Shown: positions 47,169 to 63,819 of the stretch, in pieces
Position numbering within the stretch: position 1 is the first letter of the stretch
Layout of the letters: each line of letters starts with the position of its first letter
From: Myxococcota bacterium
GTDB taxonomy: Bacteria > Myxococcota > Kuafuiibacteriia > Kuafuiibacteriales > Kuafuiibacteriaceae
Length of the DNA stretch: 64,000 nt
NCBI GenBank assembly: GCA_036788295.1
Contig: DAIQNR010000004.1
Span: 47,187 to 111,186, forward strand
Reading direction: 5' to 3'
The notes under the pieces: model-generated
Database searches by the model: none
The model's input: only the letters and a program-made list of their open reading frames with translations
Told to the model about the DNA's origin: nothing
Position numbers and translations under genes: made by a program

Positions 47169-47378
47169 AGCCCAATCTCTCGTTTTGATAGTCTGCTTCG
47201 ACAGCGCGGTCGCGGTTTGGGGGACCCCGGCGCGGCTCCGCTGAGCGCAATCCCGAAGAACCCGCCGCAAATCCAGGGACTTGACCGGTTTGGGCGGATT
47301 TCGATGGACGATACCTGGACGAAATCTAGACTCCGACGCGACCGACCGGCCGGTTCCGGCTGGGGTCACGGAGGACCG

Positions 47379-49994
47379 ATGCAAACACATGTTCGATGGA
47401 TTCTGCCCCTTGCCCTCCCCGCCGTGGTGGCCCTCGTGGCCTGCGGGGGGGACGACGAAGACACCCAACCCGACGCCGGGATGACCACCGACACGGGGAC
47501 CCGGCCCGACACGGGGACCCGGCCCGACACGGGGACCCAGCCCGACACCGGCTCGGGGGACACCGGGATGATGCTCGGCACCATCGTCCAGGTCGCACAG
47601 ACCGCGGGGCTGACCAGCCTGCTCGAGGCGGCGACGGCGGCCGGACTGGCCGAGACCCTCGCGAGCCCCGGCCCCTTCACCGTGTTCGCGCCCACCAACG
47701 AGGCCTTCTCGGCCCTTGGTGCTGCGGCGCCGACCGATCCGGCGCTGCTCGCGAACGTGCTGCTCCACCACGTCGTGCCGGGCACGCTCGAGTCCGACGC
47801 GGTGCTGGGCAGGACCACGCTCGACACCGCGGCCAACACGTCTCTCGCCGTGGACGCGACCGGGAACCCGCCGACCGTAGGCGGCGCCCCGCTCGACACC
47901 ACCCGAATCGACGTGCGCGCCTCGAACGGCGTGGTCCACGTCGTCGAGCAGGTCATGATCCCGCCCACCGTGCTCGAGGCCGCGGCCGCCACCGCGAACC
48001 TCTCGACCCTGGTCACCGCCGTGGGCGCGGCCTCTCAGTCGGTTCGAGACGCGCTCGCCGGCGGCCCGATCACCGTATTCGCTCCGGTCAACTCCGCCTT
48101 CGCTGGCGTCGATCTGGGCGAACTCACCCAAGAGCAGGTGGACGCGATCCTCAGCTACCACGTCGTGTCCGGGCAGGCCCTCTCGGGGGACCTGACCCAA
48201 GGTCAGACCCTCACCACGGCTGGCGGCGGCACGCTCACCGTCAACGTCTCCGCTGAGGGGGTCAGCCTCACCGACCAGGCCGGGTCGCAGATTCGCGTCA
48301 CCACCCCAGACATCCGCCTCCTCAACGGGGTGGTCCACCTCATCGACGGCGTCCTGAACCCCGAGGCCCCGATGATGCAGGGGAACCTGGTGGAAGAGGC
48401 CACCCGGCTCAACCTGAACACGCTCTTGTCCGCGGCGGGGACCGCTGGGCTTGCCGGCACGCTCGCTACCGGCGGCCCGTTCACCGTGTTCGCGCCCACC
48501 GACGCCGCTTTCCTCGAGCTCGGGGCAGCGACGCCCACCGACCCGGCGCTGCTCGCGAACGTGCTCCTTCACCACGTCGTGCCCGGGCGCCAGGACTCGG
48601 CCGCGGTGCTCGCCGCCGAGTCGTTCCAGACCGCGGCCAACACCTCGATCGCGGTCAACCCCGCCTCGAACCCGCCCACGATCGGCGGCGCGCCGCTCGA
48701 CGCGAACCAGCTCGACGAGGCCGCGACCAACGGCATCATCCACGTGCTCGACCGGGTCATGGTCCCGCCGACGATCGCCCAGGCCGCCGCAGCCACGGCC
48801 GACCTCTCCACCCTGTTTGCCGCCGTGGGCGCCGCCGACCCTGCGGTCGCGGCCACGCTGTCCGGCCCAGGGCCGATCACGGTCTTCGCGCCCATCAACT
48901 CCGCGTTCCCTTCGGATGTCTCCGATCTGCTCGCGGACCAGGCCCGGCTGACCAGCATCCTCACCTACCACGTCGCCACCGGCCAGGCGCTGGCCGGGAG
49001 CCTCACCGATGGCCAGGTCATCACCACCGCGAACGGCGGGACCCTCACCGTGTCGGTCGGCGCGATGGGCGCCGTCTCCCTCACCGACGGGCTCGGGAAC
49101 ACGGCGTCGGTGGTCACCGCCGACATTCGGCTGCTGAACGGGGTCGTGCACCTCATCGATGGGGTGCTGAACCCGGGGACCATCCCCGAGCGGGCCATCG
49201 CCGCGGGGCTCACCTCGCTCGCCGGAGCGGTCGAGCGGGTGGGCCTCACCCCTGCTCTTCGCGGAGCCGGGCCGTTCACCGTGTTCGCGCCGAGCAACGC
49301 CGCTTTCGCCGCAGTGCCGGCGGATCTCTCGGCGGTCAGCGACGACGTGATCGCGAACATCCTGCTTCACCACGTCGTATCCGGCCGAAACGACTCGGCC
49401 GCCGTGGTCGGCGCCACGAGCTTCACGTCGCTCGCGAACCTGCCCCTCGCCGTGGCCTCGATGCCGCTGCGGATCGGAGGGGCCAGGCTGGGCATGACGC
49501 TCGACGTGCCCGCGTCGAACGGCATCGTGCACCTGCTCGATGACGTCATCGTGCCTCCGTCCATCGTGCAGGTGGCGGCGGCCACCCCCGACCTGTCCAC
49601 CCTCGTGGGGGCGCTCGGCATGACCACGTCCGCCACGCAGGACGCGGTGAACCCGAACACGCTGGCCGGCGATCCGCCGATCACCGTGTTCGCGCCGGTC
49701 AACTCGGCTTTCATGGGTCTCACCATTCCGCCCTCCCCGGCGCTCGATGGGCTGCTCGCCTACCACGCCCTGCCCTCGCAGGTCCTGTCCACCGACCTCC
49801 CGGTGGGCATGCCCACCATCGTTCAGACGCTCGCCGGACTGCCGGTCACGGTGACCCGGAGCGCGAGCGGCGACATCACCATCCAGGACGGCGCCGGCGG
49901 CACCGCGACGGTGGAGATGGGCCGGCGTGACATCCGCACCCTGACCGGCGTGGTGCACGTCATCGACCGGGTGCTTCAGCCCCCCGCACCCTGA
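47379..49994 (+). CDS. Lipoprotein with six fasciclin (FAS1) domains
   Basis: LVAC lipobox; six TVFAP motifs each followed by H1/H2 motifs (YHV or HHV; GVVH or NGIxH); GGAGG RBS. Confidence 0.92.
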   Translation: MQTHVRWILPLALPAVVALVACGGDDEDTQPDAGMTTDTGTRPDTGTRPDTGTQPDTGSGDTGMMLGTIVQVAQTAGLTSLLEAATAAGLAETLASPGPFTVFAPTNEAFSALGAAAPTDPALLANVLLHHVVPGTLESDAVLGRTTLDTAANTSLAVDATGNPPTVGGAPLDTTRIDVRASNGVVHVVEQVMIPPTVLEAAAATANLSTLVTAVGAASQSVRDALAGGPITVFAPVNSAFAGVDLGELTQEQVDAILSYHVVSGQALSGDLTQGQTLTTAGGGTLTVNVSAEGVSLTDQAGSQIRVTTPDIRLLNGVVHLIDGVLNPEAPMMQGNLVEEATRLNLNTLLSAAGTAGLAGTLATGGPFTVFAPTDAAFLELGAATPTDPALLANVLLHHVVPGRQDSAAVLAAESFQTAANTSIAVNPASNPPTIGGAPLDANQLDEAATNGIIHVLDRVMVPPTIAQAAAATADLSTLFAAVGAADPAVAATLSGPGPITVFAPINSAFPSDVSDLLADQARLTSILTYHVATGQALAGSLTDGQVITTANGGTLTVSVGAMGAVSLTDGLGNTASVVTADIRLLNGVVHLIDGVLNPGTIPERAIAAGLTSLAGAVERVGLTPALRGAGPFTVFAPSNAAFAAVPADLSAVSDDVIANILLHHVVSGRNDSAAVVGATSFTSLANLPLAVASMPLRIGGARLGMTLDVPASNGIVHLLDDVIVPPSIVQVAAATPDLSTLVGALGMTTSATQDAVNPNTLAGDPPITVFAPVNSAFMGLTIPPSPALDGLLAYHALPSQVLSTDLPVGMPTIVQTLAGLPVTVTRSASGDITIQDGAGGTATVEMGRRDIRTLTGVVHVIDRVLQPPAP
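47488..47541 (+). repeat. In-frame 18-bp tandem repeat x3 (DTGTRP linker)
   Basis: CCGACACGGGGACCCGGC twice, then one copy with a single substitution. Confidence 0.85.
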
Positions 49995-50090: not shown

Positions 50091-50438
50091 TCATGTGAGG
50101 TCGAGGGCGATTCTCAGGCCGCGATCGAGCCGTCTCACTGCGCCCAAGGGAAGGTCTTTAGCGTGCTCGGTGAGCCAATCTCCGTCGAGCGTCATGACCT
50201 GGCACGTCAGCGCGACGCTCACCTTGGCCAACCCGGTCTCCTTCTCCTCGAGCCGGACGTTTCCGATCGCCTCAGCCCGCTGAAGGTTGGAGGTGAGCGG
50301 AACGACCATCACCGTTGAAAGGGCACTGTCGTTAAGAGGGTCAGCCTGAACGACGACCACCGGCCGAACGAAAGCCGGCTCGGATCCGCGAGGCTCGCCG
50401 AGGTCCGCCCACCAGACGCTTCCTCGCTCGATTACCAA
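50091..50438 (-). CDS. mazF: MazF/PemK endoribonuclease toxin
   Basis: WWADLGEPRGSEPAFVRPVVVVQ..N, VVPLTSN. Confidence 0.92.
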   Translation of the reverse strand: MVIERGSVWWADLGEPRGSEPAFVRPVVVVQADPLNDSALSTVMVVPLTSNLQRAEAIGNVRLEEKETGLAKVSVALTCQVMTLDGDWLTEHAKDLPLGAVRRLDRGLRIALDLT

Positions 50439-51044: not shown

Positions 51045-52757
51045 CTACTCGGGCAGGGCGGGCAGCCGGAGGGTGAAGCGGGTCGAGCCCGGCTCGGACT
51101 CGAACTCGAGCTCTCCGCCGTGGTCGCGAGCGATGCGCCGGGCGATGTCGAGGCCGAGCCCGAGGCCATTTTCCCCCTTCGTGGACACGAACGGCTCGAA
51201 GATTCGCTCGCCGAGCTCGCTGGGCACCCCGGGCCCGTCGTCGGTGACGGTGAGCCGAGCGATGGGTCCGTCCTCCTCGACCCGAACCTCGATGCGGCCC
51301 TCCCGAGCCTCGCCGAGCGCGTCGGCCGCGTTCTTCACGAGGTTCAACAGCAGCTGACGGATGCGGGGCGTGTCGATTCGGGCCCACGGCTCGCCAAGCG
51401 CGACCACCTCGAGCCGGTGGCGCTTCACCGCGGCGTCGCAGCTCACGAAGCGTGCGACCGCTCGAGCGAGCGCCAACAGATCGGCCGGCTCCCGGCGGCC
51501 CCCCGAGCCTTCCGGTCCCCGCGCAAACCCCTTCACCTCGGAGACCAAGTCCACGATGTGTTGGCGGGCCTCGAGCATCAGCTCCACCACGTTTTGGGTC
51601 TCTTCGTCGTCCGGATACTTTCGGGCGATCATGTCGGCGAGCATGAACGGAGAGAGATGGTTCTTCACCTCGTGGGCAAGACCGCTCGCCAGGCGCCCGA
51701 CCGCCGCGAGTTGCTCGGAGCGAACCAGCCTGGCCCGGGTCTCGAGCAGGTGGGCGCGCGCCGCCTCGAGCTCCCGGATGGTGGCTTCCCGCCGCTCGGC
51801 CAGCTGGAGGTTCTCGAGGGTCTGGCCGATGGTCGTCGAGAGTACGGTCAAAAGATCGAGGTCGGATTCGGAGAACGCGTCCGGCCGCCCGCTCTCCACG
51901 ACGAGCGCGCCGAGCACCTGCTCACGAAGCAGGATCGGCACCGCCATCAGCGCCCGGGTCTCGCTCAGAAACAGGGATTCCGAGGCCGCGAAGCGGGCGT
52001 CGTCCCCGGGGTCGTGGCTGAGCACCGAGCAGCGCTCGGACAGGACGTGGCGGGCCACGGTGCTCGAGAGCGTCGGCGTCCCCGGGCCCTTTCCGCGCAC
52101 CGCGGCCACCCGGAGGTCCCCGGGGGCGCCGGGCGGCTCGGTGTCGTCCTCGGTCCCCGTCCCGGTCGTGCTCGCCCCCGATTCGGCCAGCACCACGAAC
52201 CCGCGGTCGCCTTCCGTGAACTCGAGCACCAGCTCGACCAGCCGGCCGAGCATGCCTTTGGGGGTGTGGGCCGCCCGAAGCGCGAGGCTCAGCTGGTGGA
52301 GGACCGCGTAGTGCCGGGTCTTGTCGAGCAGGGCGACCGCGGCCCCCGGACCGGCGTCGAGCAGCGTCTCGTCGCCGAGGCCGAGCGCCCGGTAGATGGC
52401 GTGGCGCCCCATGGCCTTTGGAAGCTCGGCGACCCGGACCGGCTTCACCACGTCGCCTCGGGGCGCCCCGCCCGTCTCGACCCGCAGCCGGTGCTTGCCG
52501 AGCACGAGCACGTCCCCCCGACTGAGCTCTTGCCGGGCCACCCGGAGACCGTTGACGACCGTGCCGTTGGGGCTGCCGAGGTCTTCGACCACCAGCCGCC
52601 CGTCCTCGAGCAGCAGCCGGGCGTGGCGGCGGCTCACCCGGGGGTCGTCGAGGACCACGTCGCACCCCTCCGCTCGCCCGAGCGTGGACTCGCCGCGCAC
52701 GAGCACCCGTTCGCCTCGCCGCTCGGGCGGAGACTCGAAGGAGAGGGAGTGGCTCAC
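51045..52757 (-). CDS. FHA-GAF sensor histidine kinase
   Basis: GR..CD..VSRRHA...GSPNGT (FHA); GAF with LMAVPI; AHEVKN H-box, LLNLVKNA, DDGPG, GLGLGL. Confidence 0.92.
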   Translation of the reverse strand: MSHSLSFESPPERRGERVLVRGESTLGRAEGCDVVLDDPRVSRRHARLLLEDGRLVVEDLGSPNGTVVNGLRVARQELSRGDVLVLGKHRLRVETGGAPRGDVVKPVRVAELPKAMGRHAIYRALGLGDETLLDAGPGAAVALLDKTRHYAVLHQLSLALRAAHTPKGMLGRLVELVLEFTEGDRGFVVLAESGASTTGTGTEDDTEPPGAPGDLRVAAVRGKGPGTPTLSSTVARHVLSERCSVLSHDPGDDARFAASESLFLSETRALMAVPILLREQVLGALVVESGRPDAFSESDLDLLTVLSTTIGQTLENLQLAERREATIRELEAARAHLLETRARLVRSEQLAAVGRLASGLAHEVKNHLSPFMLADMIARKYPDDEETQNVVELMLEARQHIVDLVSEVKGFARGPEGSGGRREPADLLALARAVARFVSCDAAVKRHRLEVVALGEPWARIDTPRIRQLLLNLVKNAADALGEAREGRIEVRVEEDGPIARLTVTDDGPGVPSELGERIFEPFVSTKGENGLGLGLDIARRIARDHGGELEFESEPGSTRFTLRLPALPE

Positions 52758-54673
52758 GGGTCCGCCGGCGGCTCGAAGAGCGCCGCCGTCCCTCCGCCGA
52801 CCAGGAGCAGCTGCTGCCCCGTCCACGCTGCCAGCGGATTCGAGAGTCCAAACGGGGCGAACGCCGGCGTGATCGCCCGCCACTGCGCGTCGCCCACCCG
52901 CCAGGTCGCCCCGATGGTGCCGTCGAAGGCGTCGGAAGCGACGAAGAGCTGGCCGTCGCCGAACGCGAGCCCCGGCCCGGTCCGAGCGGTGGGCCCGCCG
53001 GATCGAGGAAGCAGGGTCCACCGCTCGGCCACCGGATCGAACCGAGCCCCGTCCGCGAACACCGCGCCCGATTCGTTGCCGCCGCCGAAGAACACCACCT
53101 CGGTCCCGGTGAACACCGCCCGATGGTTCGCCCGGGCGGAGAGCGGAGCGGGGGGGAGCGGCCGCCAGCGGTTGGTGCCCGGGTCGTAGGCCCAGGCGTC
53201 CCCGAGCGCAGAGAACCGCTCGTCTACGATTCCGAAGCCGCCATGCACGATGAGCTCTCGGCCGGTCCAGGCCCCGGCGTGGTCGATCCGACCCACCGAC
53301 AGAGCCGCGGTCCGCGTCCACGTCCCGGCGGCCGGGTCGTACAGGAGCCCGTCGCCGAGAAACTGCTCCTCGGAGCTTCCGCCGACCACCAGCATGCGCC
53401 GCCCGGTCCAGACCGCGAGGTGGCCCGACCGCCCCGGGCCGGGCGCGGCCGGGATCGGCACCCAACTGTCGCCGTCCGGGTCGTAGGCTCCGCCGTCGGC
53501 GAGCGGACGCTCGGGGCCGAGGCCTCCGAAGAACAGCACCGCCTCCCCGCTCCACGCCGCCGAATGACCGAGCCGGGGGGCCGGCGCTCCCTCCGACGCG
53601 ATTCGGCGCCACGTCCGGGTCTCGGGGTCGAAAGCCTGGCCATCGTCGAGGGCGAAGTTCCCTTGTTCTCCGCCGCCGAAGACGACCATCTCCCGCCCGG
53701 TCCAGGCTCCGGCGTTTCGGCCAGATAGGTTGACCGGGGCCTCGAACGCGGTCCACCGGGTGCGGCACGAGGAGGTCTCCCCCCTCTGCTGCTCGCAGCG
53801 CCAGCCCTCCTCGACCTCGCAGCTCGGGTCGCAGCCGTCGCCGGGATCGAGGTTTCCGTCGTCGCACGCTTCGTCGCCGAGCGTTCGACCGTCCCCGCAG
53901 ATCGGCGCGCATCGGGTGGGACTCTCCTCGTCGCAGGTCCAGCCGAGCTCGACCAGGCAGCCTCGGTCGCAGCCGTCGCCGGGGACCCGCCCGCCGTCGT
54001 CGCACTCCTCTGGGCCTTCGAGCCGGGCGTTGCCGCATCGAACGCAGACCGACGGCGACCCGGAGCACGAAAAACCGTCCTCGACCTCGCAATCCGGGCC
54101 GCAGCCGTCGTCGGCTTCGCGGTTTTGGTCGTCGCAGGCCTCGTTGCCTACGACGAGGCCATCCCCGCACACCGACCTGCAGACCGAGGGCGCAACTTGG
54201 GTTTCGCACACGAAGCCGGGCTCGACGCGGCAGGTTCGGTCGCACCCGTCGCCGGACCTTCGGTTGCCGTCGTCGCAGGCCTCATTGCCGCGCAGGAGGC
54301 CATCTCCGCAGCTCGGTTCGCATTGGCTCGGTTCGGCGTCGTCGCAGCTCCAGCCCCACTCGACCAGGCAAGTCGCCGAGCAGCCGTCCCCGTCTCGCTC
54401 GCCGCCGTCGTCGCAGGACTCGCGGGCACGGACCCGGCCGTCTCCGCAGACGGCCCTGCACTGAGAAGGAGCCCCTTCGCACGCGAACCCGAACTCGACC
54501 CGGCACGTCGCGCTGCAGCCGTCCCTGTCCTCCCGGTTGCCGTCATCGCAGCCCTCGCCCGGCTGGACCACCCCGTCCCCGCACGGAGGGACGACGGCAT
54601 CGAGGTCTCGAGGCTCGGTGCACGCCGCGCCGAGCATGAGGGCCACCCCGGCGACCCAACCGGGCCAGCTCAT
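52754..54673 (-). CDS. Lipoprotein with six Myxococcus Cys-rich (DUF4215) repeats and a Kelch-like beta-propeller
   Basis: LGAAC lipobox; six CGDG..E.CDDG repeats; repeated H.A.WTG.E...FGG blades. Confidence 0.9.
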   Translation of the reverse strand: MSWPGWVAGVALMLGAACTEPRDLDAVVPPCGDGVVQPGEGCDDGNREDRDGCSATCRVEFGFACEGAPSQCRAVCGDGRVRARESCDDGGERDGDGCSATCLVEWGWSCDDAEPSQCEPSCGDGLLRGNEACDDGNRRSGDGCDRTCRVEPGFVCETQVAPSVCRSVCGDGLVVGNEACDDQNREADDGCGPDCEVEDGFSCSGSPSVCVRCGNARLEGPEECDDGGRVPGDGCDRGCLVELGWTCDEESPTRCAPICGDGRTLGDEACDDGNLDPGDGCDPSCEVEEGWRCEQQRGETSSCRTRWTAFEAPVNLSGRNAGAWTGREMVVFGGGEQGNFALDDGQAFDPETRTWRRIASEGAPAPRLGHSAAWSGEAVLFFGGLGPERPLADGGAYDPDGDSWVPIPAAPGPGRSGHLAVWTGRRMLVVGGSSEEQFLGDGLLYDPAAGTWTRTAALSVGRIDHAGAWTGRELIVHGGFGIVDERFSALGDAWAYDPGTNRWRPLPPAPLSARANHRAVFTGTEVVFFGGGNESGAVFADGARFDPVAERWTLLPRSGGPTARTGPGLAFGDGQLFVASDAFDGTIGATWRVGDAQWRAITPAFAPFGLSNPLAAWTGQQLLLVGGGTAALFEPPADP

Positions 54674-56736
54674 CGAGGGTCCTCCGACCAAGAGGAGATC
54701 GGGGGGAGCTGGGGCTCGTCGAGCCACTGGGCCACCGCCCAACCGACCAGGGACACCGCGACGCCAACCGCGGCAAAGCCGAGCGACTGCGCAAACCCGC
54801 GGTTGTCCTCTTGGGCCCGCACTCGGCCCTGGAGGGCATCGAAACGATCGGGCTCGGTCGTCGCCCCGAGGGCGCGAAGCGCGTCTTCGCGCCGATTCTC
54901 GAACCGCTGCGCCGCCGAGAATCGCTCCACCGCCAGCCCCGCGAACACCGCCGCCGCCCCGAAGCTCGCAAACTTGGCCCACGGAGCGGTGTGCAGCCGC
55001 TCCACCGCAGGAGCCTCCGCCGATGGTTCGAGCGCAGCGGACGGAACCATCCGAACGTGGGGCGGGGCCCCTTCGGGCATCGCCTGAGACCCCGGCTCGG
55101 AACCCGGCTCGATCGCCGGCGGCCGCAGGGGGGTCTCCTGCCACCACCGGGGCGCGTTGGTGGAGAATCGGCGGTAGGCTACGAACTGCGGAGCGGTGGC
55201 CGGGTCGGCGCCGAGCCCCGGCAGCGCCCGCCCCGGTCCAAACAGCGGCTCGACCACGAACAGGCGGCCCCCAGCGGCCCGCCAGCCGTCGAGCATCGCG
55301 AGCAAGGGCACCGACAGCCGAGCGTCGAGCGCGACTTCGAGCGCCCGCGCCAAGGAAGCCGGACGCGACCTCTTCGGTTGGTCCCTGCCCGCTGCGTCCG
55401 CCGGTTCGAGCCCGAGGCCCCCGGACGCGGCGACGAGGTCGATGCCGGCGTCGGAGGCGATGGCTGCCACCTCCTGCACCTGCCGAAGCAGCGTGGGCAC
55501 GGCCGTGTTCTCGAGAAACGACACCGCGGCGTCGGCGGTGCCCGGGGGCAGATCGGCGCCGAGGCGAGGGTTCACCGCGAGGGCGTCCACCGCCGCCCCC
55601 GTCGCCTCGAACTCCATCATGCGCCGCACCAACGCCGAGTCGCCGAGCGGCACCGACAAGACCCGCACCACCCGATCGGCCCCGAGCGCCCGGCGGAACG
55701 CCGAAAACGAGGACCGCGCCCGGCGGGTCGAAGCCAACCACCGGCCCACCTGGGGGTCCGGATCGAGGACCGCCCCCTCTCGAAGCAGGCGGTCCTCGCT
55801 GGCCGGCTCCGATCGTTCGGAGTCGACCTCGAGGTACAGTCGGAGCCCCGGCTCCAGCATTTTGGCCGCGAGGCCAGCGAGCCGCTGCAGGTGGTCGTCG
55901 TCGAGTCGGGCGGGAATGCGCAGCCACAGGTCCGCCCGAAGGTGCGAGGCGAGCGCGAAGTGGTGCTCGTAGGCCACCCCGCCGGGGCCGGTCTGGGTCG
56001 CGTCGTCCGGCTTCGCGCGGTGGGCCCAGTCGCTCGGGGCGTCCGCCGGCAACCACCCCGCGGTGCGCAGCACCGAAAACGGGGTCAGCCGCTCGACGAA
56101 ATCCGGATCGAAGCTCGGGACCGGGCCTTCGGACCACCGCTCGGGGAGCAGCTCCACCGACCGGATCGGCATCGACGGGGAGCTGCGCTCGATGCGAATC
56201 GAGACCGTCGCCCCGCCCGCGACCAGCTCGATCCGCCCCGCGGACCGGCGGCCCACCCGGGCCCCGCCGACCTCGACCCGGCCGTCCCCCAGATACCGGA
56301 GCACATAGCTCGCTCCGGGCTCCGTCGGTGCGTCGGCCACGGCCACCTGCCCGCGAGCGAGCCGCCGAACCCACCCCTTCTCGTCGAGAGCGAGCGGCTC
56401 GGGGTGAGGGCGACCCCGGCGGTCCAGAGCCCGCCAGCGGCTCGCCTGCCGAAACCGATCGGTGAACGCGACGTGGTCGGTGCCCACCCCGATCGGCCCG
56501 AGCGTGACCCCGAGCGGGGAACGACGGTCGGCCCGCGGACCCTCGACCACCGGCGCCGGCGGGTTCTCGGGCTCGTCCGGCTCGGCCCCCATCCACTGCG
56601 GCTCGGTGGGCGGCGGGACCGGGGCCTGCGGCGCGAACGCCCGAGGCTGCGAGCCGGCGACCTGGCAACCGGCCACGAGCAGTGGCACCAGGGGACGGAG
56701 CAACCCGAGCCTTGGACTGTTTGTCGTCGCGCTCAT
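54670..56736 (-). CDS. Lipoprotein with degenerate clan GH-A-like ('cellulose-binding protein') domain and C-terminal hydrophobic hairpin
   Basis: LVAGC lipobox; FDPDF..L.PFSVLR, W..R.KPDD.T, GVAYE, DLW..IP...DDD, LRLYLE. Confidence 0.7.
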   Translation of the reverse strand: MSATTNSPRLGLLRPLVPLLVAGCQVAGSQPRAFAPQAPVPPPTEPQWMGAEPDEPENPPAPVVEGPRADRRSPLGVTLGPIGVGTDHVAFTDRFRQASRWRALDRRGRPHPEPLALDEKGWVRRLARGQVAVADAPTEPGASYVLRYLGDGRVEVGGARVGRRSAGRIELVAGGATVSIRIERSSPSMPIRSVELLPERWSEGPVPSFDPDFVERLTPFSVLRTAGWLPADAPSDWAHRAKPDDATQTGPGGVAYEHHFALASHLRADLWLRIPARLDDDHLQRLAGLAAKMLEPGLRLYLEVDSERSEPASEDRLLREGAVLDPDPQVGRWLASTRRARSSFSAFRRALGADRVVRVLSVPLGDSALVRRMMEFEATGAAVDALAVNPRLGADLPPGTADAAVSFLENTAVPTLLRQVQEVAAIASDAGIDLVAASGGLGLEPADAAGRDQPKRSRPASLARALEVALDARLSVPLLAMLDGWRAAGGRLFVVEPLFGPGRALPGLGADPATAPQFVAYRRFSTNAPRWWQETPLRPPAIEPGSEPGSQAMPEGAPPHVRMVPSAALEPSAEAPAVERLHTAPWAKFASFGAAAVFAGLAVERFSAAQRFENRREDALRALGATTEPDRFDALQGRVRAQEDNRGFAQSLGFAAVGVAVSLVGWAVAQWLDEPQLPPISSWSEDPR

Positions 56737-58298
56737 CGGTTTTGCTCTCGATGGGCGGCCCGCAGCCGGGACAGCGCTCGGCGAAGCTGCTCGGCGAAGC
56801 GGCCCGCCGTCGCCGGTCGAAGCTCGGGGACCGGCGACATCGCCCGCTCCACGAGCTCCCGGACCCGCTGCGGCACCTCGATGTCGCTCGGCAGGGGCGG
56901 CGGCGGGGCCGACATGCGGGCCTTCACTGCGTCCACGGTGGGCTCGAACGCGGCCCGCCCGGCGAGCATCTCCCACAGGACCACCCCGAGAGAGAACAGG
57001 TCGGATCGGGGGTCGGCCGGCCGCCCTTTCGCTTGCTCCGGGGCCATGTACCGCAGCGTGCCCACCATCATCCCCTCGTTCACCGGCTGGCGGTCGGTCC
57101 GGACCGCGACCCCGAAATCGGACAGCTTCGCCCGGGCCCCTCGGTCCACCAGCACGTTGCTCGGCTTGACGTCCCGGTGAACGATTCCGGCGGCGTGCAC
57201 GGCGGCGAGCGCCTCGGCCAGCGTTTTCGCCACGTGCAGGGCGAGGTACGGCTCGAGTCGGCCCCCCCGAAGCAGCGCGCGCAGGCTTCGGCCAGCGAAG
57301 TACTCCATGACGAAGAAGGTCACCTCCGCCTCCCTTCCGAAATCGAACACCGACAGGCAACCGGCGTGCTGGACCCGGGCCGCCATCCTCGCTTCGGCCA
57401 AGAAGCCCTCGAGAAGGTCTGGGTCTTCGGCCAGCGAAGGCGCGAGCACCTTCACCGCCACCGGGCGCTCGAGCACCTGGTCCCGGGCGAGGTACACGGT
57501 CGCTTGCGAGCCTCGACCGACCTCCCGCTCGAGCCGAAAGCGCCCGCGAAGGATCGACCCCACCAGCGCGTGAGGGGCCGGGCTCGGGGGCCGGGACGGC
57601 CAGCCGAAATCGAGCGACGCGCTGTCATCGGCGAGGTCGGCGACCAGGTGTTCCGCGTCGATGACGGCGCTGATCGCGGCGTCGATCTCGCGAACCGACC
57701 GGCCAGGGGGTTCGAACCGCGCTTCATGGGTCGCAGGGACCGGATGGGAAGGGTGGACGAGCCGAAGCGTCGCTCGAACGTGCTCGGCGTAATCGGTGGC
57801 TCCCGCCTTCATCGCCGACTCGAGCTCGTCGGCCCACGCCGCGGCGCTCGATCCGAGCGGCGAGCTCCCCCGACGCCGCTCCTCCGCCCAAATGAGCCGG
57901 GCGGCAGGCTCCGATGGGGCCTCGTCGGACAGCGGCCCCTCCGCCGCCCGGAGCACGGCCTCGCTCGGCTCGGGGTCGTCCTCGTCGAGCGGAGCGAGCA
58001 GCAACGGGCGGGGCAAGCTGGTCTCCTCCGAGGCGGCGCGAGCGGGACCAGGGAGCCACTTCGCGTTCGAGACATCGCTCTCTTCCGTGTCCGCGGGCGC
58101 CAGGTTGGCCATCGGCGGGCCCTCGAGCTGGGCCCGCAGCCGCTGCGCTCGCTGCTCGTCGCCGGCGTGCTGGAAGGCCTCGGCCGCCTCGAGCAAAAGC
58201 TGCCGGCCGATGCTGGCGTCGCCCTGGGCGATGGCGTGCTCGGCCTGCTCCACGAGGCGCAGCGCCGCTCGCGCCGACTGGGTGCCCTCCGCGCTCAC
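56733..58298 (-). CDS. Cytoplasmic Ser/Thr kinase (C-terminal kinase domain)
   Basis: GRGSQATV, VAVK, HRDVKPSN, DFG, YMAPE; GTG start at 58298 is inferred. Confidence 0.9.
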   Translation of the reverse strand: MSAEGTQSARAALRLVEQAEHAIAQGDASIGRQLLLEAAEAFQHAGDEQRAQRLRAQLEGPPMANLAPADTEESDVSNAKWLPGPARAASEETSLPRPLLLAPLDEDDPEPSEAVLRAAEGPLSDEAPSEPAARLIWAEERRRGSSPLGSSAAAWADELESAMKAGATDYAEHVRATLRLVHPSHPVPATHEARFEPPGRSVREIDAAISAVIDAEHLVADLADDSASLDFGWPSRPPSPAPHALVGSILRGRFRLEREVGRGSQATVYLARDQVLERPVAVKVLAPSLAEDPDLLEGFLAEARMAARVQHAGCLSVFDFGREAEVTFFVMEYFAGRSLRALLRGGRLEPYLALHVAKTLAEALAAVHAAGIVHRDVKPSNVLVDRGARAKLSDFGVAVRTDRQPVNEGMMVGTLRYMAPEQAKGRPADPRSDLFSLGVVLWEMLAGRAAFEPTVDAVKARMSAPPPPLPSDIEVPQRVRELVERAMSPVPELRPATAGRFAEQLRRALSRLRAAHREQNR

Positions 58299-58394
58299 CG
58301 TTGCCTCCTTTCGGTGGACGCTAGCCGAATTCCGCGTCCCGGCGAAGGCGCCGCTCCGGTTGATCTTTTGGGACCGGAGGGCAAGCCTTTCCCC

Positions 58395-59756
58395 ATGGCG
58401 GGGGAAGATGGCGAAGTCGAGACAGCCACCGCCCACACCCTCCCCGGGTTGGCGTCTTTTTCTGTCGGACTCGATGGTCGGTATCGCTCGTTCGATCAAG
58501 AACACGCGGCGGTCGTCGCGTCGAGAGGGGGCGCGGCCCCCAGGGTAGGCGAACTGGCGCCGTCCGCCCTCGCCTCGGCGCTGGTGAGGGCCGCCGCCGG
58601 TCAGCAGGTGCAAGAGACCTGGTCCTCTGCGGGGGCTCCTCCTCTGCCGGTGCTGCTCTTCCCCATCGCCGGCGGTGTGCTCGTTCTTCACCCGAGCCGC
58701 GCCGCGGGAGCCCGGCGCGACGAGCTGACCCGACTGTCGGAGGGGGTCGTCAACGAGCTCAACAACCTCGAGGTGGGCCTCGGGGGGGTGACGGAGGGGC
58801 TTCGCAGCGACCCGAGCGAAGCCCATGTCACCCTGGATCTCTTGACCGACCTCGCCGCCCGCGCCGACGCCGCGCGGCGCCTGGCCCGCACCATCCGCTC
58901 GCTCGTGATGCCGACGCCCACCACCACGGTGGCGCTCGACGACGTCCTTCGCCGGCTCGAGCCCCGGCTCCGGCGAGCGGCGCCGCGCTGCGGGTTCACC
59001 GTGGAGGTCGGCGCCCCCGAGGTCGAGGTGGAGGCCGAGGTCGAGGAGCTGGCCGACGCGCTCGGGGAGCTGGTGCGAAACGCAGCCGAGGCCGGCGCCC
59101 GGCGGGTCGTCGTGCGCTCGGGTCTGGGCCCCCCCGGGACCGTCGTGCTCGACGTGGACGACGACGGCGAGGGCATCGATCCCGACCGGCAGTCCCAAGC
59201 CTTCGAGGTCTACACCGGGTCGCGAAAGCACACCCAGGGCATCGGGCTCACGCGGGTCCGCGGGGTCGCGCTCAGCCACCGGGGGTGGGTTCGAGTCGAA
59301 GAGAGCCGCCCGGGCAAAACGGTGCTGCGCCTCAGCTTGCCCATCGCGAGCCCGAGATCGCCCCCGAGCCCTCCGCCGGCGCCCGCTCGACCCCGGTCGC
59401 TCGACGTGTTCGTCATCGACGACGCGCCCGAGGTCCGCCGGGTCCTGGGCCGCATCCTTCGCCACGCCGGCCACCGGGTCGCAGAGGCCGAGGACGGGGT
59501 CGATGCGCTCGAGAAGCTCGAAGCGAGGGGCGGGCTGCCCGATTTGGTCGTGCTCGACCTGATGATGCCCCGCATGGACGGCGTAGAGACCTACCGGGCC
59601 CTGAGGTCCCGCTCGACGACGCTGCCGGTGCTGATCACGAGCGGATTTCACCCGTCCAGCCTCGGCTTCCTCGAGACGGACTCCCGGGCGAGCTTCTTGC
59701 CCAAGCCCTTCCTGCCCGCCGAAGTCATCGCCGCGCTCGACGCCCTCATGCGCTGA
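58395..59756 (+). CDS. Hybrid histidine-kinase-like/receiver protein lacking the H-box His
   Basis: GVVNELNN where AHDFNN is expected; RNA N-box, DDDGEGI, GIGL; receiver LDLMMPRMDG...KPF. Confidence 0.8.
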   Translation: MAGEDGEVETATAHTLPGLASFSVGLDGRYRSFDQEHAAVVASRGGAAPRVGELAPSALASALVRAAAGQQVQETWSSAGAPPLPVLLFPIAGGVLVLHPSRAAGARRDELTRLSEGVVNELNNLEVGLGGVTEGLRSDPSEAHVTLDLLTDLAARADAARRLARTIRSLVMPTPTTTVALDDVLRRLEPRLRRAAPRCGFTVEVGAPEVEVEAEVEELADALGELVRNAAEAGARRVVVRSGLGPPGTVVLDVDDDGEGIDPDRQSQAFEVYTGSRKHTQGIGLTRVRGVALSHRGWVRVEESRPGKTVLRLSLPIASPRSPPSPPPAPARPRSLDVFVIDDAPEVRRVLGRILRHAGHRVAEAEDGVDALEKLEARGGLPDLVVLDLMMPRMDGVETYRALRSRSTTLPVLITSGFHPSSLGFLETDSRASFLPKPFLPAEVIAALDALMR

Positions 59757-59783: not shown

Positions 59784-61211
59784 ATGGGCCTCGACGTGCA
59801 CCTCATCGGCATCTGCGGCACCGGGATGGGCAGCTTCGCCGGGTTGCTCGGCGCGGCAGGCCATCGGGTCCGGGGCAGCGACCAGAATGTCTATCCGCCG
59901 ATGTCCAAGAAGCTCGAGGACTGGGGCGTCCCGGTGTTCGAGGGCTACCGGGCCGAGAATCTGCATCCGCCGCCGGACCTCGTCGTCGTCGGCAACGCGA
60001 TCCGGCGCGACAACCCGGAGGCGATGGCGGCCGAGCGCGCCGGACTGACCATGACCTCGTTTCCGGCGGCGCTCCGTGAGCTCTTCCTCGACGGTCGGCG
60101 CTCGCTGGTCGTGGCCGGAACCCACGGCAAGACGACGACGACGAGCTTGCTGGCCTGGATGCTGGCCCGAGCCGGGCGCGACCCGAGCTTCCTCATCGGG
60201 GGGGTCCCCGAGAACTTCGGAGAAGGTTTTCGATGGGGAAAGGGCCCATGTTTCGTGGTGGAGGGCGACGAGTACGACACCGCGTATTTCGACAAACGCC
60301 CGAAATTCCTTCACTACCAGCCAGAGCGGCTCGTGATCACCTCGCTCGAGTACGACCACGCCGACATCTACCCCGACGTCGAGACCATCGAGGCCCGCTT
60401 CGAGGAGCTGGTCGCGCTCGTCCCCGACCACGGCCTCGTCCTCGCGTGCGCCTCCGCGCCCCGGGCCCTGGCCCGGCGTTCGGCCTGCCGGGCTCGATTC
60501 GCCACCTACACCGCGCGCGACCGGGTCGATGCCAGCTGGCGCGCGGCCGGGGTGACGCCGGACGGAGACGGTGTTCGCTTCACCCTCGAGCACCAGGGTC
60601 GGCCGCTGGCCTCTCTGTTTCTCCCCATGTCCGGGCGACACAACGTCGAGAACGCGGTGGCCGCCTCGGCGCTCGCCCTCGAGGAGGGTCTCGACCTCGG
60701 CGAGCTCGCCGAGGCAATGGCGTCGTTTCGGGGGGTTGCGCGCCGCCAGACCGTCCGGGCGGTGGTCGGCGGAGTGCGCATCATCGACGACTTCGCCCAC
60801 CACCCGAGCGCGGTGGCCGAGACCCTCGCCGGCCTTTGCGCCCGGTACCCCGAAGGCAGGCTGGTCGCCGTGTTCGAGCCGCGGACGGCGACCAGCGCCC
60901 GGAGCACGTTTCACGACGCCTACGCTCGCGCCTTCGCCGACGCGGACCTCGCCGTCATCGCCCCCGTGGGACGGCCGGAGCTCCCGGCGAGCGAGCGGCT
61001 CGACGTCGCTCGGCTCGTCCTCGACATCGAGAAGTCAGGCACGGAAGCCGAGGCTCCGGAGAGCCTCGACCGGCTGGTCGCCCGGCTCACCGCCGCGCTG
61101 CTCCCCGGCGACACCGTCGTGCTGATGAGCAACGGCGGCTTCGGCGGGGTGCCCAACCGCCTCGAGACCGCGCTCGCCGCCCGGTTTCAGTCCAAACCGC
61201 CGCTCCGATAG
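59784..61211 (+). CDS. mpl: UDP-MurNAc:L-Ala-gamma-D-Glu-mDAP ligase (murein peptide ligase)
   Basis: HLIGICGTGMG, GSDQNVYPPMS, GTHGKTTT, EGDEYDTAYFDKRPKF, DDFAHHP. Confidence 0.93.
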   Translation: MGLDVHLIGICGTGMGSFAGLLGAAGHRVRGSDQNVYPPMSKKLEDWGVPVFEGYRAENLHPPPDLVVVGNAIRRDNPEAMAAERAGLTMTSFPAALRELFLDGRRSLVVAGTHGKTTTTSLLAWMLARAGRDPSFLIGGVPENFGEGFRWGKGPCFVVEGDEYDTAYFDKRPKFLHYQPERLVITSLEYDHADIYPDVETIEARFEELVALVPDHGLVLACASAPRALARRSACRARFATYTARDRVDASWRAAGVTPDGDGVRFTLEHQGRPLASLFLPMSGRHNVENAVAASALALEEGLDLGELAEAMASFRGVARRQTVRAVVGGVRIIDDFAHHPSAVAETLAGLCARYPEGRLVAVFEPRTATSARSTFHDAYARAFADADLAVIAPVGRPELPASERLDVARLVLDIEKSGTEAEAPESLDRLVARLTAALLPGDTVVLMSNGGFGGVPNRLETALAARFQSKPPLR

Positions 61212-62128
61212 AACGTCACCGTTCGGGCGATCCCCTCCGCGAAGTCCACCTGGGGCTCGTACCCGAGCAGGGCCCGGGCGCGCCCGATGTCGGCCTGCGA
61301 GTGGCGGACGTCCCCGGCCCGAGGCGGCCCGTGCACCGGGGGCCGACCCCGGCCGACCGCATCCCGCACCGCCCGCGCCAGCTCCACCAGGGTGATCCGG
61401 TCGCCGCGGGCCACGTTGATGACTGCGCCCGCCGCCTCCGGCGCCTCGCAGGCGAGCAGATTCGCCTGGACCACGTCGGCGATGAAGGTGAAATCGCGCG
61501 AAGTCGTGCCGTCGCCATGGATGGTCGGCGCCTCGTCCCGCAGGCAAGCGCCGATGAACAGCGGGATCACCGCCGCGTACGCGCTGTTCGGATCCTGCCT
61601 GGGGCCGAACACGTTGAAGTAGCGCAGCGCGACGGTCTCGAGGCCGAAGCACTCGGTGAAGACCCGGCAGTAGAGCTCGCCGGCGTACTTCTGGACCGCG
61701 TACGGGCTCTTCGGCGACGCGGGCATGGTCTCGACCTTCGGGAGCCGCTCGGTGTCGCCGTAGGCGGACGAGGACGCGGCGTACACCACCCGCCGGACGC
61801 CCGCGTCGCGGGCCGCGATCAAGAGGTTGAGCGTCCCGTCGACGTTGACGGCGTGGGTCTCGGCCGGTCGCTCGAGCGACTTCGGAACGCTCGGGAGCGC
61901 AGCTTGGTGGAGCACGAAGTCCACGCCCGCCACCGCCCGCCGGCACGTCTCCGGGTCGGTCACCGAGCCCTCGAGCAGGTCCAGCGAGGGCAAAAAGGGG
62001 TCTAGGTTCTCACGCTTGCCCGTCGAGAGGTCGTCGAGCACGCGGACGCGATCCCCTCGGGCGAGCAGCGCCTCGACGAGGTTCGAGCCGATGAAACCGG
62101 CGCCGCCGGTGACGAGCACGCTGGGCAT
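61187..62128 (-). CDS. Extended SDR NAD-dependent nucleotide-sugar epimerase (WbpP-like)
   Basis: TGGAGFIG, YAVQK (YxxxK), LRYFNVFG, RDF. Confidence 0.92.
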   Translation of the reverse strand: MPSVLVTGGAGFIGSNLVEALLARGDRVRVLDDLSTGKRENLDPFLPSLDLLEGSVTDPETCRRAVAGVDFVLHQAALPSVPKSLERPAETHAVNVDGTLNLLIAARDAGVRRVVYAASSSAYGDTERLPKVETMPASPKSPYAVQKYAGELYCRVFTECFGLETVALRYFNVFGPRQDPNSAYAAVIPLFIGACLRDEAPTIHGDGTTSRDFTFIADVVQANLLACEAPEAAGAVINVARGDRITLVELARAVRDAVGRGRPPVHGPPRAGDVRHSQADIGRARALLGYEPQVDFAEGIARTVTFYRSGGLD

Positions 62129-62181: not shown

Positions 62182-63819
62182 GTGGTTGTGTATGAGCCCG
62201 GGGTGACCGACGGGTTCGTCGAGCACGTCGGTCGGTTCCGGGTGGTCGGGTGCATCGCCCGGGGCGGCATGGCGGAGATCTTCCTCGCGCGGCCCGACGA
62301 CCCGGAGTCCACCGACGCCGGCGCGGAGGTCGCGCTCAAGCGGCTCTTGCCCGGGCTCGCCCACGACCGCGGGTTCCTCGAGATGTTCCGGGACGAGGCC
62401 CACCTCGCCTCGCAGCTCGACCACCCGAACATCGTCCGCATCCTCGAGGTGGGAGAGGACCCAAACGGGCCCCACATCGCGATGGAGCTCCTGCGGGGGG
62501 TGAACCTGCGGGACTTGTTGTCGCGCCTGCAGACCCTCCGCCAATCGATGCCGCTTCCGCTCGGGATCGCGATCTGCGTTCAGGCCCTGTCCGCGCTCGG
62601 GCACGCCCACCGGTTCGCCGACGGGCAGGGTCGACCGCTGCGGCTCGTGCATCGGGACGTGTCCCCGCAAAACGTGATCCTCACCTACGACGGCGCGGTG
62701 AAGCTCGTGGACTTCGGGGTCGCGAAGGCGGAGGGGCGGCTCCACCAGACGCGGGCCGGGCTCATCAAGGGAAAGTTCGCGTACATGTCCCCCGAGCAGG
62801 TGGACGCCGGGGAGCTCGACGGGCGCTCCGACCTGTTCGCGCTCGCCGAGGTGTTCTTCGAGCTGCTGCTCCGCCGACACCCTTTCTACGCCGCGTCCGA
62901 CATGGACGTGCTGCGCAAGGTGCTCGACGAACCGGCGCCGGACGCGAGGGTCCTCGATCCGAGTTTCCCGGACGTCCCGGCCGAGGTCCTGCATCGGGCC
63001 CTCGAGAAGCGGCCCGAGGATCGCTTCCCCGACGCGGAGTCGATGCGGGCCCCGCTCGACGCCTGGCTCAGAGAGGTCGGGCAGCGGCCCACCTCCCGCG
63101 ACCTCGCCCGCTTCGTCCGAAGCCTGTTCGGGGACCGACTCCGAGAGGAGGAGCGGGCTCGGCGAGCCGGGGACGACCGCGCCCTGGTCGAGGCGCTCCG
63201 GGTCGGGCGCGCGTCGGTGGTGGGCATGGTCACCCAAATGGGAGCTCCGGTCGTGCCCACGGCGCTCGACGGCTCGGAGGATGTGCCCACCGTCATCGCC
63301 GGGGGCAGGCCACCCCGACCCAGACCGCACTCGGTGACGGTCCGCCCCGCGTCGCCCGGTCGGCGCGGACCACGGATCGTACCTGCGGAGCGAGCCGACG
63401 CAGCCGATCCGGCCGAGGCGCCGGCTCCCCCCGAGCCGCTCGAGGTGGCGCCGCTCGAACCCACTTCCCGGAGGCCCAGGCCGTTTTCGGCGCCCCGACG
63501 GTTCGACCTCGCCGTGTTCGCGCTCGGGTTGCTCGCCCTGCTCGCGTCGATCCGCTTCGCGCTCGCCCCCCCACGGGGTACCGCCGACATCGACGTCCAC
63601 AGCGAGCCGCCCGGCGCCGAGGTGTGGGTGAACCGGCAGCGTTCCGGCCTGACCAGCCCAGCCCGGCTGCGCATCCCCACCGGCGAGCCGGTCGATGTCG
63701 AGCTGCGGCACCCGGGCTTTCGCACCTGCACGAAGCGGGTGCTGCTCGGCAGCGACGTGCCCGCGGACATCCGCTGCCGGCTCGAGCCGCTCCCGCACCC
63801 CGCGCCTCGCTTTCCTTGA
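62182..63819 (+). CDS. Membrane Ser/Thr kinase with C-terminal PEGA domain
   Basis: [22 protein letters not shown]; TM segment; [14 protein letters not shown]. Confidence 0.92.

Follow-up and report, generated by a model that had tools for sequence, protein, structure and literature searches.

A five-gene kinase and lipoprotein locus in an uncultured Myxococcota bacterium: probably a cell-envelope sugar-sensing circuit, with predicted wiring

Gene organisation of the locus

The 64,000 nt stretch of DNA analysed here (the window, to which all coordinates refer) is about 70% GC and forms part of a 6.8-Mb metagenome-assembled genome (MAG) of a Myxococcota bacterium. Between nt 51045 and 59756 it carries a compact group of five genes. 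Four of them lie head to tail on the minus strand and specify, from first to last, a Ser/Thr kinase (STK, 521 aa; nt 56733-58298), a putative membrane-anchored pseudo-glycosidase named here LipoB (688 aa; nt 54670-56736), a DUF4215-Kelch lipoprotein (639 aa; nt 52754-54673) and an FHA-GAF histidine kinase (570 aa; nt 51045-52757). The fifth (453 aa; plus strand, nt 58395-59756) diverges from the STK gene across a 96 nt intergenic region (nt 58299-58394, STK start to hybrid start) and specifies a protein of hybrid kinase architecture in which the phospho-acceptor histidine is replaced, referred to below as the His-less hybrid.

All three junctions within the minus-strand set are 4 nt overlaps, reading on the coding strand ATGA between STK and LipoB (nt 56733-56736), ATGA between LipoB and the Kelch gene (nt 54670-54673), and GTGA between the Kelch and FHA kinase genes (nt 52754-52757). 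Bacterial operons often contain start/stop overlaps of this length, so a run of three points to tight coupling and to nothing unusual. Third-position GC supports the minus-strand frames across nt 51045-58298 and the plus-strand frame from about nt 58400. The STK gene starts with GTG at nt 58298, just downstream of an AAGGAGG sequence, and the hybrid gene with ATG at nt 58395; the start sites of the hybrid, FHA kinase and STK fall in the same alignment columns as those of their orthologues. The gene models, the overlaps, the 96 nt divergence and the domain calls of an initial annotation of this DNA are all borne out by the codons, third-position GC and Pfam and NCBIfam matches. A promoter and terminator scan of the locus was uninformative (5 terminator-like sites, with 3.7 expected), and the terminator scan gave no credible internal terminators between the four minus-strand genes.

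Relatives were surveyed within a class that is small, with 20 genomes from 12 genera; the window genome, G001 and G002 make up one of these genera. Searches at the order and class levels yielded no genomes beyond the 20 already given by the family search.

LipoB, a glycosidase-like barrel on a membrane hairpin

LipoB has no match in Pfam or NCBIfam. A profile of its family found nothing among PDB sequences or in Pfam, and its identity was given by fold comparison alone. The AlphaFold2 (AF2) model has a mean pLDDT of 86, rising above 90 over residues ~70-540, and shows a beta-sandwich with a (beta/alpha)8 barrel, the TIM barrel of clan GH-A, which together occupy aa ~71-535 (nt 55132-56526). 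Foldseek matched the model with probability 1.0, foremost to the GH79 heparanase 5bwi and to GH51, GH10 and GH26 structures, and also to GH53, GH113 and GH5-like structures and to 4zn2, a Pseudomonas aeruginosa glycosyl hydrolase that we take to be PslG; TM-scores normalised to the target were 0.4-0.5. The earlier description of this protein as a 'glycan-fold' lipoprotein is upheld by the model and its structural matches.

A word-indexed homologue search with LipoB returned one distant match only, and a HMMER search of 1.84 billion representative sequences returned 2731, of which 1132 were at E<1e-10. Most members of this family are secreted proteins or lipoproteins of ~520 aa, and none in a 50-sequence sample matches a glycosidase family of Pfam. 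The wider family keeps the two clan GH-A motifs, EYSNE(V/L)WN carrying the acid/base and AYEGGQH carrying the nucleophile. In the 50-sequence alignment both motifs are intact in 30 of the 33 members that have no C-terminal membrane segment, whereas one or both catalytic Glu are missing in each of the 17 members with C-terminal membrane helices, among them LipoB and its closest relatives. LipoB itself keeps the acid/base Glu (E307, nt 55816-55818), although the preceding Asn has become Ser (LEVDSE), and has Ser438 (nt 55423-55425) at the nucleophile position, within VAASGG where the family has AYEGG. It thus has the (beta/alpha)8 fold of clan GH-A and only one of the two catalytic Glu residues of a retaining GH-A hydrolase. 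Because the nucleophile Glu is replaced by Ser438, LipoB is classed as a GH-A-like fold and not as an enzyme; on its sequence, it should not act by the classical retaining mechanism.

The ~520 aa secreted family with intact GH-A motifs (EYSNEvWN, AYEGGQH) has no Pfam model of its own and no relative in the PDB by sequence. These proteins probably represent an undescribed or un-modelled glycoside hydrolase family, judging from their motifs.

The N-terminus of LipoB carries a lipobox (LLVAG, then Cys24 at nt 56665-56667), and Cys24 is invariant in all seven members of the clade with two transmembrane (TM) helices. The lipoprotein assignments of LipoB and of the Kelch protein both rest on such motifs read from the sequence. 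At the other end of LipoB, after a linker modelled with low confidence, AF2 places a two-helix hairpin (aa 584-672, nt 54721-54987), with helices at 585-625 and 629-673 and the turn GATTEPD at aa 624-630. The outer halves of the helices are hydrophobic (WAKFASFGAAAVFAGLAV and LGFAAVGVAVSLVGWAVAQWL), and the inner 46 residues are Arg-rich. Since the N-terminal lipobox places the barrel in the periplasm, the hairpin tip should face the cytoplasm. Pairwise identity among seven close relatives is 54-58% over the TM helices, 38% over the ectodomain and 40% over the loop, in which R605, R616, Q636, R640 and R646 are invariant in all seven sequences. As judged from this alignment, the hairpin is conserved beyond the needs of an anchor, and it would be the sole cytoplasm-facing part of the two envelope proteins.

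The DUF4215-Kelch lipoprotein

The product of the next gene, assigned through Pfam and NCBIfam, begins with a signal peptide, followed by about six Cys-rich DUF4215/TIGR02232 repeats (aa ~30-300) and a Kelch beta-propeller (aa ~305-630). The repeats score 139.2 bits with the DUF4215 model PF13948 and 247.8 bits with TIGR02232, in 6 stretches; the propeller scores 174.7 bits with PF24681 and 93.9 bits with PF01344, the repeat models being above their cut-offs. The signal peptide ends in MLGAA before the Cys, and the corresponding sequences are VAGAC in G001 and SALAC in G002, whose orthologues have a similar N-terminus by eye. Full-length orthologues (44-49% identity) were found in these two genomes only, among the 20 of the class.

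The Ser/Thr kinase and the FHA-GAF histidine kinase

The STK, assigned through Pfam and an orthologue alignment, has a short TPR-like N-terminus (aa ~8-58), a poorly conserved linker and a Hanks kinase domain (aa 255-496, nt 56811-57536) that scores 151.3 bits with PF00069 against a cut-off of 31.7; no membrane segment is predicted. Its catalytic motifs (VAVK283, HRDVKPSN at 374, DFG and APE419) are invariant in five orthologues. In all five other genera that were checked, an mpl gene, the Mur ligase gene that in the window follows the hybrid, is found within a few kb of an STK orthologue whose kinase domain is 51-57% identical. In G004 and G012 the orthologue diverges from mpl and is much longer (~890-960 aa), with a long TPR region; the STK and mpl reading frames of G012 are ~100 nt apart with no hybrid between them, and in G004 PrmA lies downstream. 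The kinase domain of the window STK is 56% identical to that of the mpl-adjacent TPR-STK of other genera, and its first ~50 residues are also kept, although they align weakly. The TPR array is shorter in this genus by ~350 aa, while two short N-terminal motifs, RRGRSPL...HLRA and EIDAAI, remain conserved. A strictly conserved phospho-Thr docking site was sought by alignment in the STK linker and in the LipoB hairpin tip, and none was found.

The FHA-GAF kinase comprises an FHA domain (aa 25-87, nt 52497-52685), a GAF domain (aa 164-316, nt 51810-52268) and a HATPase_c domain (aa 462-567, nt 51057-51374), with no evident membrane segment. The FHA domain scores 69.5 bits with PF00498 (cut-off 20.7) and has the phosphate-holding residues G27-R28 and S42-R-R-H45 and the SPNGT motif. 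The H box reads AHEVKNHLSPF, with the acceptor H362 at nt 51672-51674, and H362, E363 and N366 are invariant in an alignment of nine orthologues. HATPase_c scores 89 bits, while the HisKA model scores 18.5 bits, below its cut-off of 26.9. By its H box and HATPase_c domain, as found with Pfam, NCBIfam and the nine-sequence alignment, the protein classes as a HisKA-type sensor histidine kinase. It is not a member of the EspA equivalog family NF052573, scoring 119.5 bits against a cut-off of 1400.

The GAF domain contains an acidic insert rich in Thr, STTGTGTEDDTEPPGAPG, at aa ~205-235 (nt 52060-52150). Six of the seven genomes with the operon have it; L036 and the orthologues of other genera do not.

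Full-length orthologues of the FHA kinase (~50% identity) occur in five other genera beside unrelated neighbours: G004 has an ANF-receptor lipoprotein and a different STK, G005 a GT1, G007 OtsAB and DnaE, and G016 Prc and SIR2. In G004 (genus g3, G004:C41, L027 3705-9680) the kinase gene directly follows that of the ANF-receptor/periplasmic-binding lipoprotein and diverges from a different Ser/Thr kinase of ~886 aa, making another grouping of STK, extracytoplasmic binder and FHA kinase. A general rule of sensor plus FHA kinase, drawn from this arrangement, was rejected on account of the unrelated neighbours in G005, G007 and G016.

The His-less hybrid and its neighbour mpl

The divergent gene specifies a PAS-like domain (aa 6-100), two dimerisation/phosphotransfer (DHp) helices (aa 102-171), a catalytic and ATP-binding (CA) domain (aa 178-317) and a receiver (aa 338-448). 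Pfam detects HATPase_c (48 bits) and Response_reg (75 bits) and gives no HisKA match; NCBIfam was also searched, and the AF2 model (pLDDT 81) shows the PAS-like domain, a two-helix DHp, the CA domain and the receiver. The H box reads VVNELNN, with N120 (AAC, nt 58752-58754) at the position of the phospho-acceptor His. Orthologues were taken as 15 database sequences plus that of G002, at 41-53% identity, and aligned in a set of 18 sequences. All 16 have Asn at this position ([VLIW]NELNN), and CckA-like outgroups read AHDFNN, so the loss of the His reported in the initial annotation holds for the family.

Other parts of the protein are retained. The N box, G1 (DDGEG) and G2 (QG-GLTR) are conserved, N123 and N124 are invariant, and N124 is the Asn at position H+4. 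The receiver, which matches PF00072, has the expected D342/D343, D388, T415/S416 and K437; in the 18-sequence alignment D343, D388 and S416 are invariant and K437 nearly so, and the receiver is the most conserved part of the hybrid. With Asn in place of the acceptor His the protein falls outside the definition of a hybrid histidine kinase, and it is classed from its sequence as a pseudo-kinase with hybrid architecture. It should be unable to autophosphorylate at the canonical site, because the acceptor His is Asn. In HisKA kinases the Asn or Thr at H+4 is required for phosphatase activity, which loss of the His reduces only mildly (PMC3510030), and phosphatase-only sensors such as BumS are known (PMC11796366). 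The hybrid may accept phosphate on its receiver, remove phosphate, or both.

An mpl-like Mur ligase gene (nt 59784-61211, plus strand) begins 27 nt 3′ of the hybrid and is its conserved right-hand neighbour. The same-strand spacing is 8-44 nt in G001, L032 and L035, and in G002 the two reading frames overlap by 4 nt. The mpl orthologues that follow the hybrid in G001 and G002 share 61-67% identity with that of the window, and the corresponding neighbours on contigs are annotated Mur_ligase/_M/_C. In its picture of the lipoprotein and the hybrid, the initial annotation was correct on the fold and on the missing His; it overlooked the pseudo-enzyme on its hairpin, the phosphatase residue of the hybrid and the adjacent mpl.

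Conservation and origin of the arrangement

The initial annotation had made its proposal depend on gene order in related genomes, and the order is kept: the five genes and mpl occur in the same order and orientation in G001, in G002 and in the metagenome contigs L032/L033 and L035. Identity to the window proteins in G001 and G002 is 58-65% for the FHA kinase, 44-49% for the Kelch lipoprotein, 34-43% for LipoB, 59-60% for the STK kinase domain, 49-54% for the hybrid and 61-67% for Mpl. LipoB relatives at 37-46% identity were found on five metagenome or MAG contigs, and the shorter contigs L034 and L036 show a cut, unannotated gene followed by LipoB, the next gene and the FHA kinase. Most orthologous loci retain the 4 nt overlap of LipoB and Kelch. 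To the left of the locus L032, L035 and L036 differ, with MatE, TM2/MscS or a 908 aa gene as the flank. A scan of the genome contigs with LipoB alone gave nothing, and an alignment-based scan recovered only G001 and G002. Among the 20 genomes, the hybrid, a two-TM LipoB and a full-length Kelch orthologue co-occur in this genus only.

Parts of the arrangement are found elsewhere. Distant LipoB relatives (P0010, P0011 and P0013; loci L037-L039) have four membrane helices and also lack the nucleophile Glu, and their genes are translationally coupled to those of one or two six-bladed propellers of the SGL/NHL type. In genera g8 and g9 the hairpin module is carried by a protein with no recognisable Pfam domain and with PEGA-like repeats by eye, the gene of which is paired with that of a DUF4215-RCC1 or DUF4215-Kelch lipoprotein. 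The junction of this pair is a 4 nt overlap in G010 (L048 9530-13524, G010:C2), and in G009 (L012, G009:C109) the genes are adjacent with overlapping frames. The propeller partner is a Cys-rich DUF4215 lipoprotein in three of the four forms of the cassette. Because the pair occurs elsewhere without kinases, the older unit would be a hairpin-anchored ectodomain plus a propeller protein, and this hairpin/propeller cassette looks like an undescribed modular envelope unit. From the comparison of gene neighbourhoods, it appears that the genus joined the cassette, an orphan FHA kinase, a new His-less hybrid and a resident STK-mpl pair into one locus.

The four-TM loci L037-L039 lie beside sugar-metabolism genes (GT4, polysaccharide deacetylase, SIS and HAD).

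Proposed function and alternatives

The locus is probably a cell-envelope sugar-sensing circuit, the wiring of which is predicted. The preferred reading, held tentatively and a little short of an even chance, is that of a lineage-specific signalling locus in which the LipoB/Kelch pair is the input. An older two-gene envelope cassette would have been inserted, translationally coupled, between a cytoplasmic Hanks STK and a cytoplasmic FHA-GAF kinase, with LipoB held in the inner membrane by its lipid anchor and its C-terminal helical hairpin. The enzyme-dead barrel of LipoB and the Kelch propeller would bind an envelope or extracellular glycan, and the cytoplasmic hairpin tip would relay the bound state to the soluble kinases. 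Phosphorylation of Thr by the STK would be read by the FHA domain of the histidine kinase, which would in turn phosphorylate a receiver, most simply that of the neighbouring hybrid. Given that the hybrid is predicted to be incapable of canonical autophosphorylation yet keeps the H+4 Asn, it would serve as a phospho-acceptor, a phosphatase or a sink, not as a kinase.

The envelope pair is placed at the input because the cassette lies between both kinase genes and is coupled to both, because neither kinase has a recognisable membrane or periplasmic part, and because the hairpin of LipoB, as the presumed sole cytoplasm-facing part, is more conserved than an anchor would need. The downstream steps, FHA reading and phosphotransfer, are modelled on the EspA/EspC/PktA5 precedent.

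Several observations weigh against this reading. The five aligned STK orthologues share no invariant Thr outside the kinase domain, nor does their activation loop have a conserved Thr besides the P+1 Thr; the Thr of the hairpin tip is present in five of the seven LipoB sequences, with only Ser in the remaining two. Of the nine FHA kinase orthologues, two have changes in the residues that contact phosphate, GR becoming GS and NGT becoming HGT in G002, and SxxH becoming GxxH (GRRH), again with HGT, in L032. The FHA kinase has orthologues in the five other genera without a hybrid orthologue, and the STK-mpl loci read in detail (G004 and G012) have none of the other genes of the locus. The cassette also occurs apart from kinases, both as the four-TM LipoB relatives with their propeller partners, which have no kinases nearby, and in G010, the genome in which its flanks were examined. 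Some of the shared gene order in G001 and G002 is background collinearity, since fasciclin and MatE on the left and mpl on the right are also kept, and no output domain is present in the locus.

The initial annotation proposed a different chain, in which the STK autophosphorylates, the FHA domain binds the phosphorylated STK and the histidine kinase is thereby primed, and the receiver of the hybrid is then phosphorylated, the lipoproteins being unspecified sensors. The adjacency and coupling of the genes, the intact FHA residues R28, S42 and H45 of this genome, the intact STK catalytic motifs and the D, T and K of the hybrid receiver, which are intact and more than 80% conserved, all fit this chain, and trans-phosphorylation from EspA to EspC provides a precedent (PMC4320627). 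It is nevertheless rather unlikely, with no conserved Thr outside the kinase domain of the five aligned STKs to serve it, a degenerate FHA domain in two of nine orthologues and no route offered from the lipoproteins to the cytoplasmic kinases. In the five genera where the FHA kinase occurs without the hybrid, the kinase would have another partner, the hybrid being missing there. The further claim that the circuit is self-contained did not survive the comparison: the assembly is genus-specific, and the STK near mpl and the FHA kinase without the hybrid are each found in five other genera.

It is likewise somewhat unlikely that the envelope pair is cargo, that is, structural or polysaccharide-handling proteins co-expressed with or controlled by the kinases, the input of which would lie elsewhere, for example in the GAF or PAS domains. 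The FHA kinase and the hybrid each have a domain of a class well known for sensing ligands in the cytoplasm, GAF in the one and PAS-like in the other, and in other genera the cassette lies without kinases beside GT4, deacetylase and SIS/HAD genes. Here, however, it sits between two kinase genes with 4 nt overlaps on both sides, and the coupling of LipoB to Kelch is kept in most loci. A passive anchor would also require neither membrane helices more conserved than the ectodomain nor the invariant Arg and Gln residues of the cytoplasmic loop.

A stronger form of the preferred reading is decidedly unlikely as a whole. In it, LipoB and the Kelch protein would form a two-protein trans-envelope glycan receptor signalling via the hairpin tip; the STK would phosphorylate the tip or a nearby site, the FHA domain would dock there, and the kinase would feed a His-less phosphatase partner that resets the signal, the cassette being a general modular envelope-sensor unit.

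The hybrid might instead belong with mpl, as a phosphatase or phosphate sink or as an ATP- or PAS-dependent regulator tied to peptidoglycan recycling, with its partner kinase elsewhere. The two genes are indeed close on one strand (27 nt apart here, 8-44 nt in G001, L032 and L035, overlapping by 4 nt in G002), and the H+4 Asn needed by a phosphatase is invariant. This is very unlikely, however: mpl adjoins the STK in every genus examined, where the hybrid was not detected at E<=1e-30, so mpl would be independent of the hybrid, and the hybrid was found only where the LipoB-Kelch-FHA kinase block exists.

That the genes have no functional link, having been assembled by one rearrangement in the ancestor of the genus and kept by shared ancestry, is barely credible. 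In its favour, the arrangement is confined to one genus-level clade, G001 and G002 are collinear with the window in the flanking fasciclin, MatE and mpl genes as well, and chance adjacency of an STK is not rare, since myxobacterial genomes carry many Ser/Thr kinase genes (a loose first look gave ~180-370 STK candidates per genome). Against it, the order outlasts divergence of LipoB to 34-46% identity, is also kept where the left flank differs, and has tightly packed or overlapping junctions in most loci.

Comparison with known signalling systems

The locus would work most like the Esp system of Myxococcus xanthus but is not a member of it. In both, which are myxobacterial, an FHA histidine kinase gene lies beside Ser/Thr kinase genes and a membrane protein gene, as with EspA, PktA5, PktB8, EspB and EspC. 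EspA phosphorylates its own receiver and that of EspC, which is also a hybrid kinase, and it may interact with PktA5, so that EspA, named in the initial annotation as a precedent linking FHA kinases and STKs, is a real one (PMC4320627); for the hybrid described here such transfer is only proposed. The differences are several. EspA has PAS domains and a receiver of its own, making it a hybrid (FHA-PAS-PAS-HK-REC), whereas the FHA kinase of the window has a GAF domain and no receiver, and the hybrid of the window scores 72 bits against the EspC cut-off of 1200. EspC keeps its His, whereas the family described here has Asn throughout. The Esp system has no pair of pseudo-glycosidase and propeller, and its output is MrpC turnover, for which no counterpart was identified at this locus.

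The hybrid resembles BumS of Campylobacter jejuni, DivL of Caulobacter and the His mutants of NtrB and CrdS, which have DHp and CA domains without autokinase chemistry and keep the fold, the ATP-lid motifs and the Asn or Thr at H+4 (PMC11796366, PMC3510030, PMC9430884). It differs from the phosphatase-only kinases in that the pseudo-kinase is fused to an intact receiver and a PAS-like domain and has no DNA-binding partner nearby; its phosphatase activity is predicted.

LipoB shares with clan GH-A hydrolases (GH79, GH51, GH10, GH26 and the PslG-like 4zn2) the (beta/alpha)8 barrel with a beta-sandwich and the acid/base Glu of strand 4. It departs from them in having no sequence match in Pfam or the PDB, a Ser at the nucleophile position, a fused lipobox and hairpin, and a gene within a kinase operon. 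Among GH18 proteins, the chi-lectins have lost a catalytic carboxylate and kept the fold, and LipoB is similar in retaining its fold without one of its catalytic carboxylates.

The RsgI anti-sigma factors of Clostridium thermocellum carry CBM or GH modules, and the hybrid two-component systems of Bacteroides have periplasmic beta-propeller sensors. In both, extracytoplasmic GH-like or beta-propeller glycan-binding domains provide the input for transmembrane signalling, the role for which LipoB and the Kelch protein are candidates. Sensor and signalling parts are one polypeptide in those systems, whereas the candidate sensors here are separate and the kinases soluble, so a signal would have to pass by contact between proteins at the hairpin. 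In the mycobacterial PknB-MviN-FhaA system a kinase phosphorylates the cytoplasmic part of an envelope-biogenesis membrane protein, and the phospho-Thr recruits an FHA protein. PknB, however, is a PASTA receptor kinase, whereas the STK here is soluble and the Thr of the hairpin tip is not strictly conserved.

A limited, precedent-directed literature search did not find the five-part combination of pseudo-glycosidase hairpin, propeller lipoprotein, STK, FHA kinase and His-less hybrid. Every component is of a known kind, and the combination is new. The host organisms are uncultured and represented by MAGs, and the finding stands at the level of annotation. If the predicted wiring is correct, soluble Ser/Thr and histidine kinases would be given extracytoplasmic input by a separate pseudo-enzyme receptor, a GH-fold protein would have turned naturally from catalyst to sensor, and the hybrid would offer a naturally occurring pseudo-kinase in which the change from His to Asn is fixed and which is joined to a receiver of its own. 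No Pfam entry describes the cassette of hairpin ectodomain and propeller, which could be an envelope module found widely in this poorly known class of Myxococcota.

The divergent intergenic region and flanking genes

The promoter scan gave no sigma-70-like match in the 96 nt divergent region. A sigma-54 promoter at the conserved GGCAC...TTGATC was considered and rejected by inspection, as the two elements lie 2-3 nt too far apart and there is no GC at -12. The sequence GTTGATCTTT at nt 58359-58368, ~25 nt upstream of the ribosome-binding site (RBS) of the hybrid, is shared by the window with G001, G002 and L035. The window copy lies within the loop of an inverted repeat, CTCCGG...CCGGAG, which overlaps the hybrid RBS. 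A GAGGAAAACGC block common to the other four loci is missing from the divergent region of the window.

At the 3′ end of the operon, a MazF/PemK toxin gene (nt 50091-50438) lies between a gene with six FAS1 domains (nt 47217-49994) and the FHA kinase in this genome only. It would be a local insertion, since fasciclin genes directly adjoin the FHA kinase in G001 and G002. On the other side of the locus, an NAD-dependent epimerase gene (nt 61187-62128) is followed by that of a second Ser/Thr kinase, which has a C-terminal PEGA domain (nt 62182-63819); the same epimerase/PEGA-STK pair also flanks mpl in contig L035.

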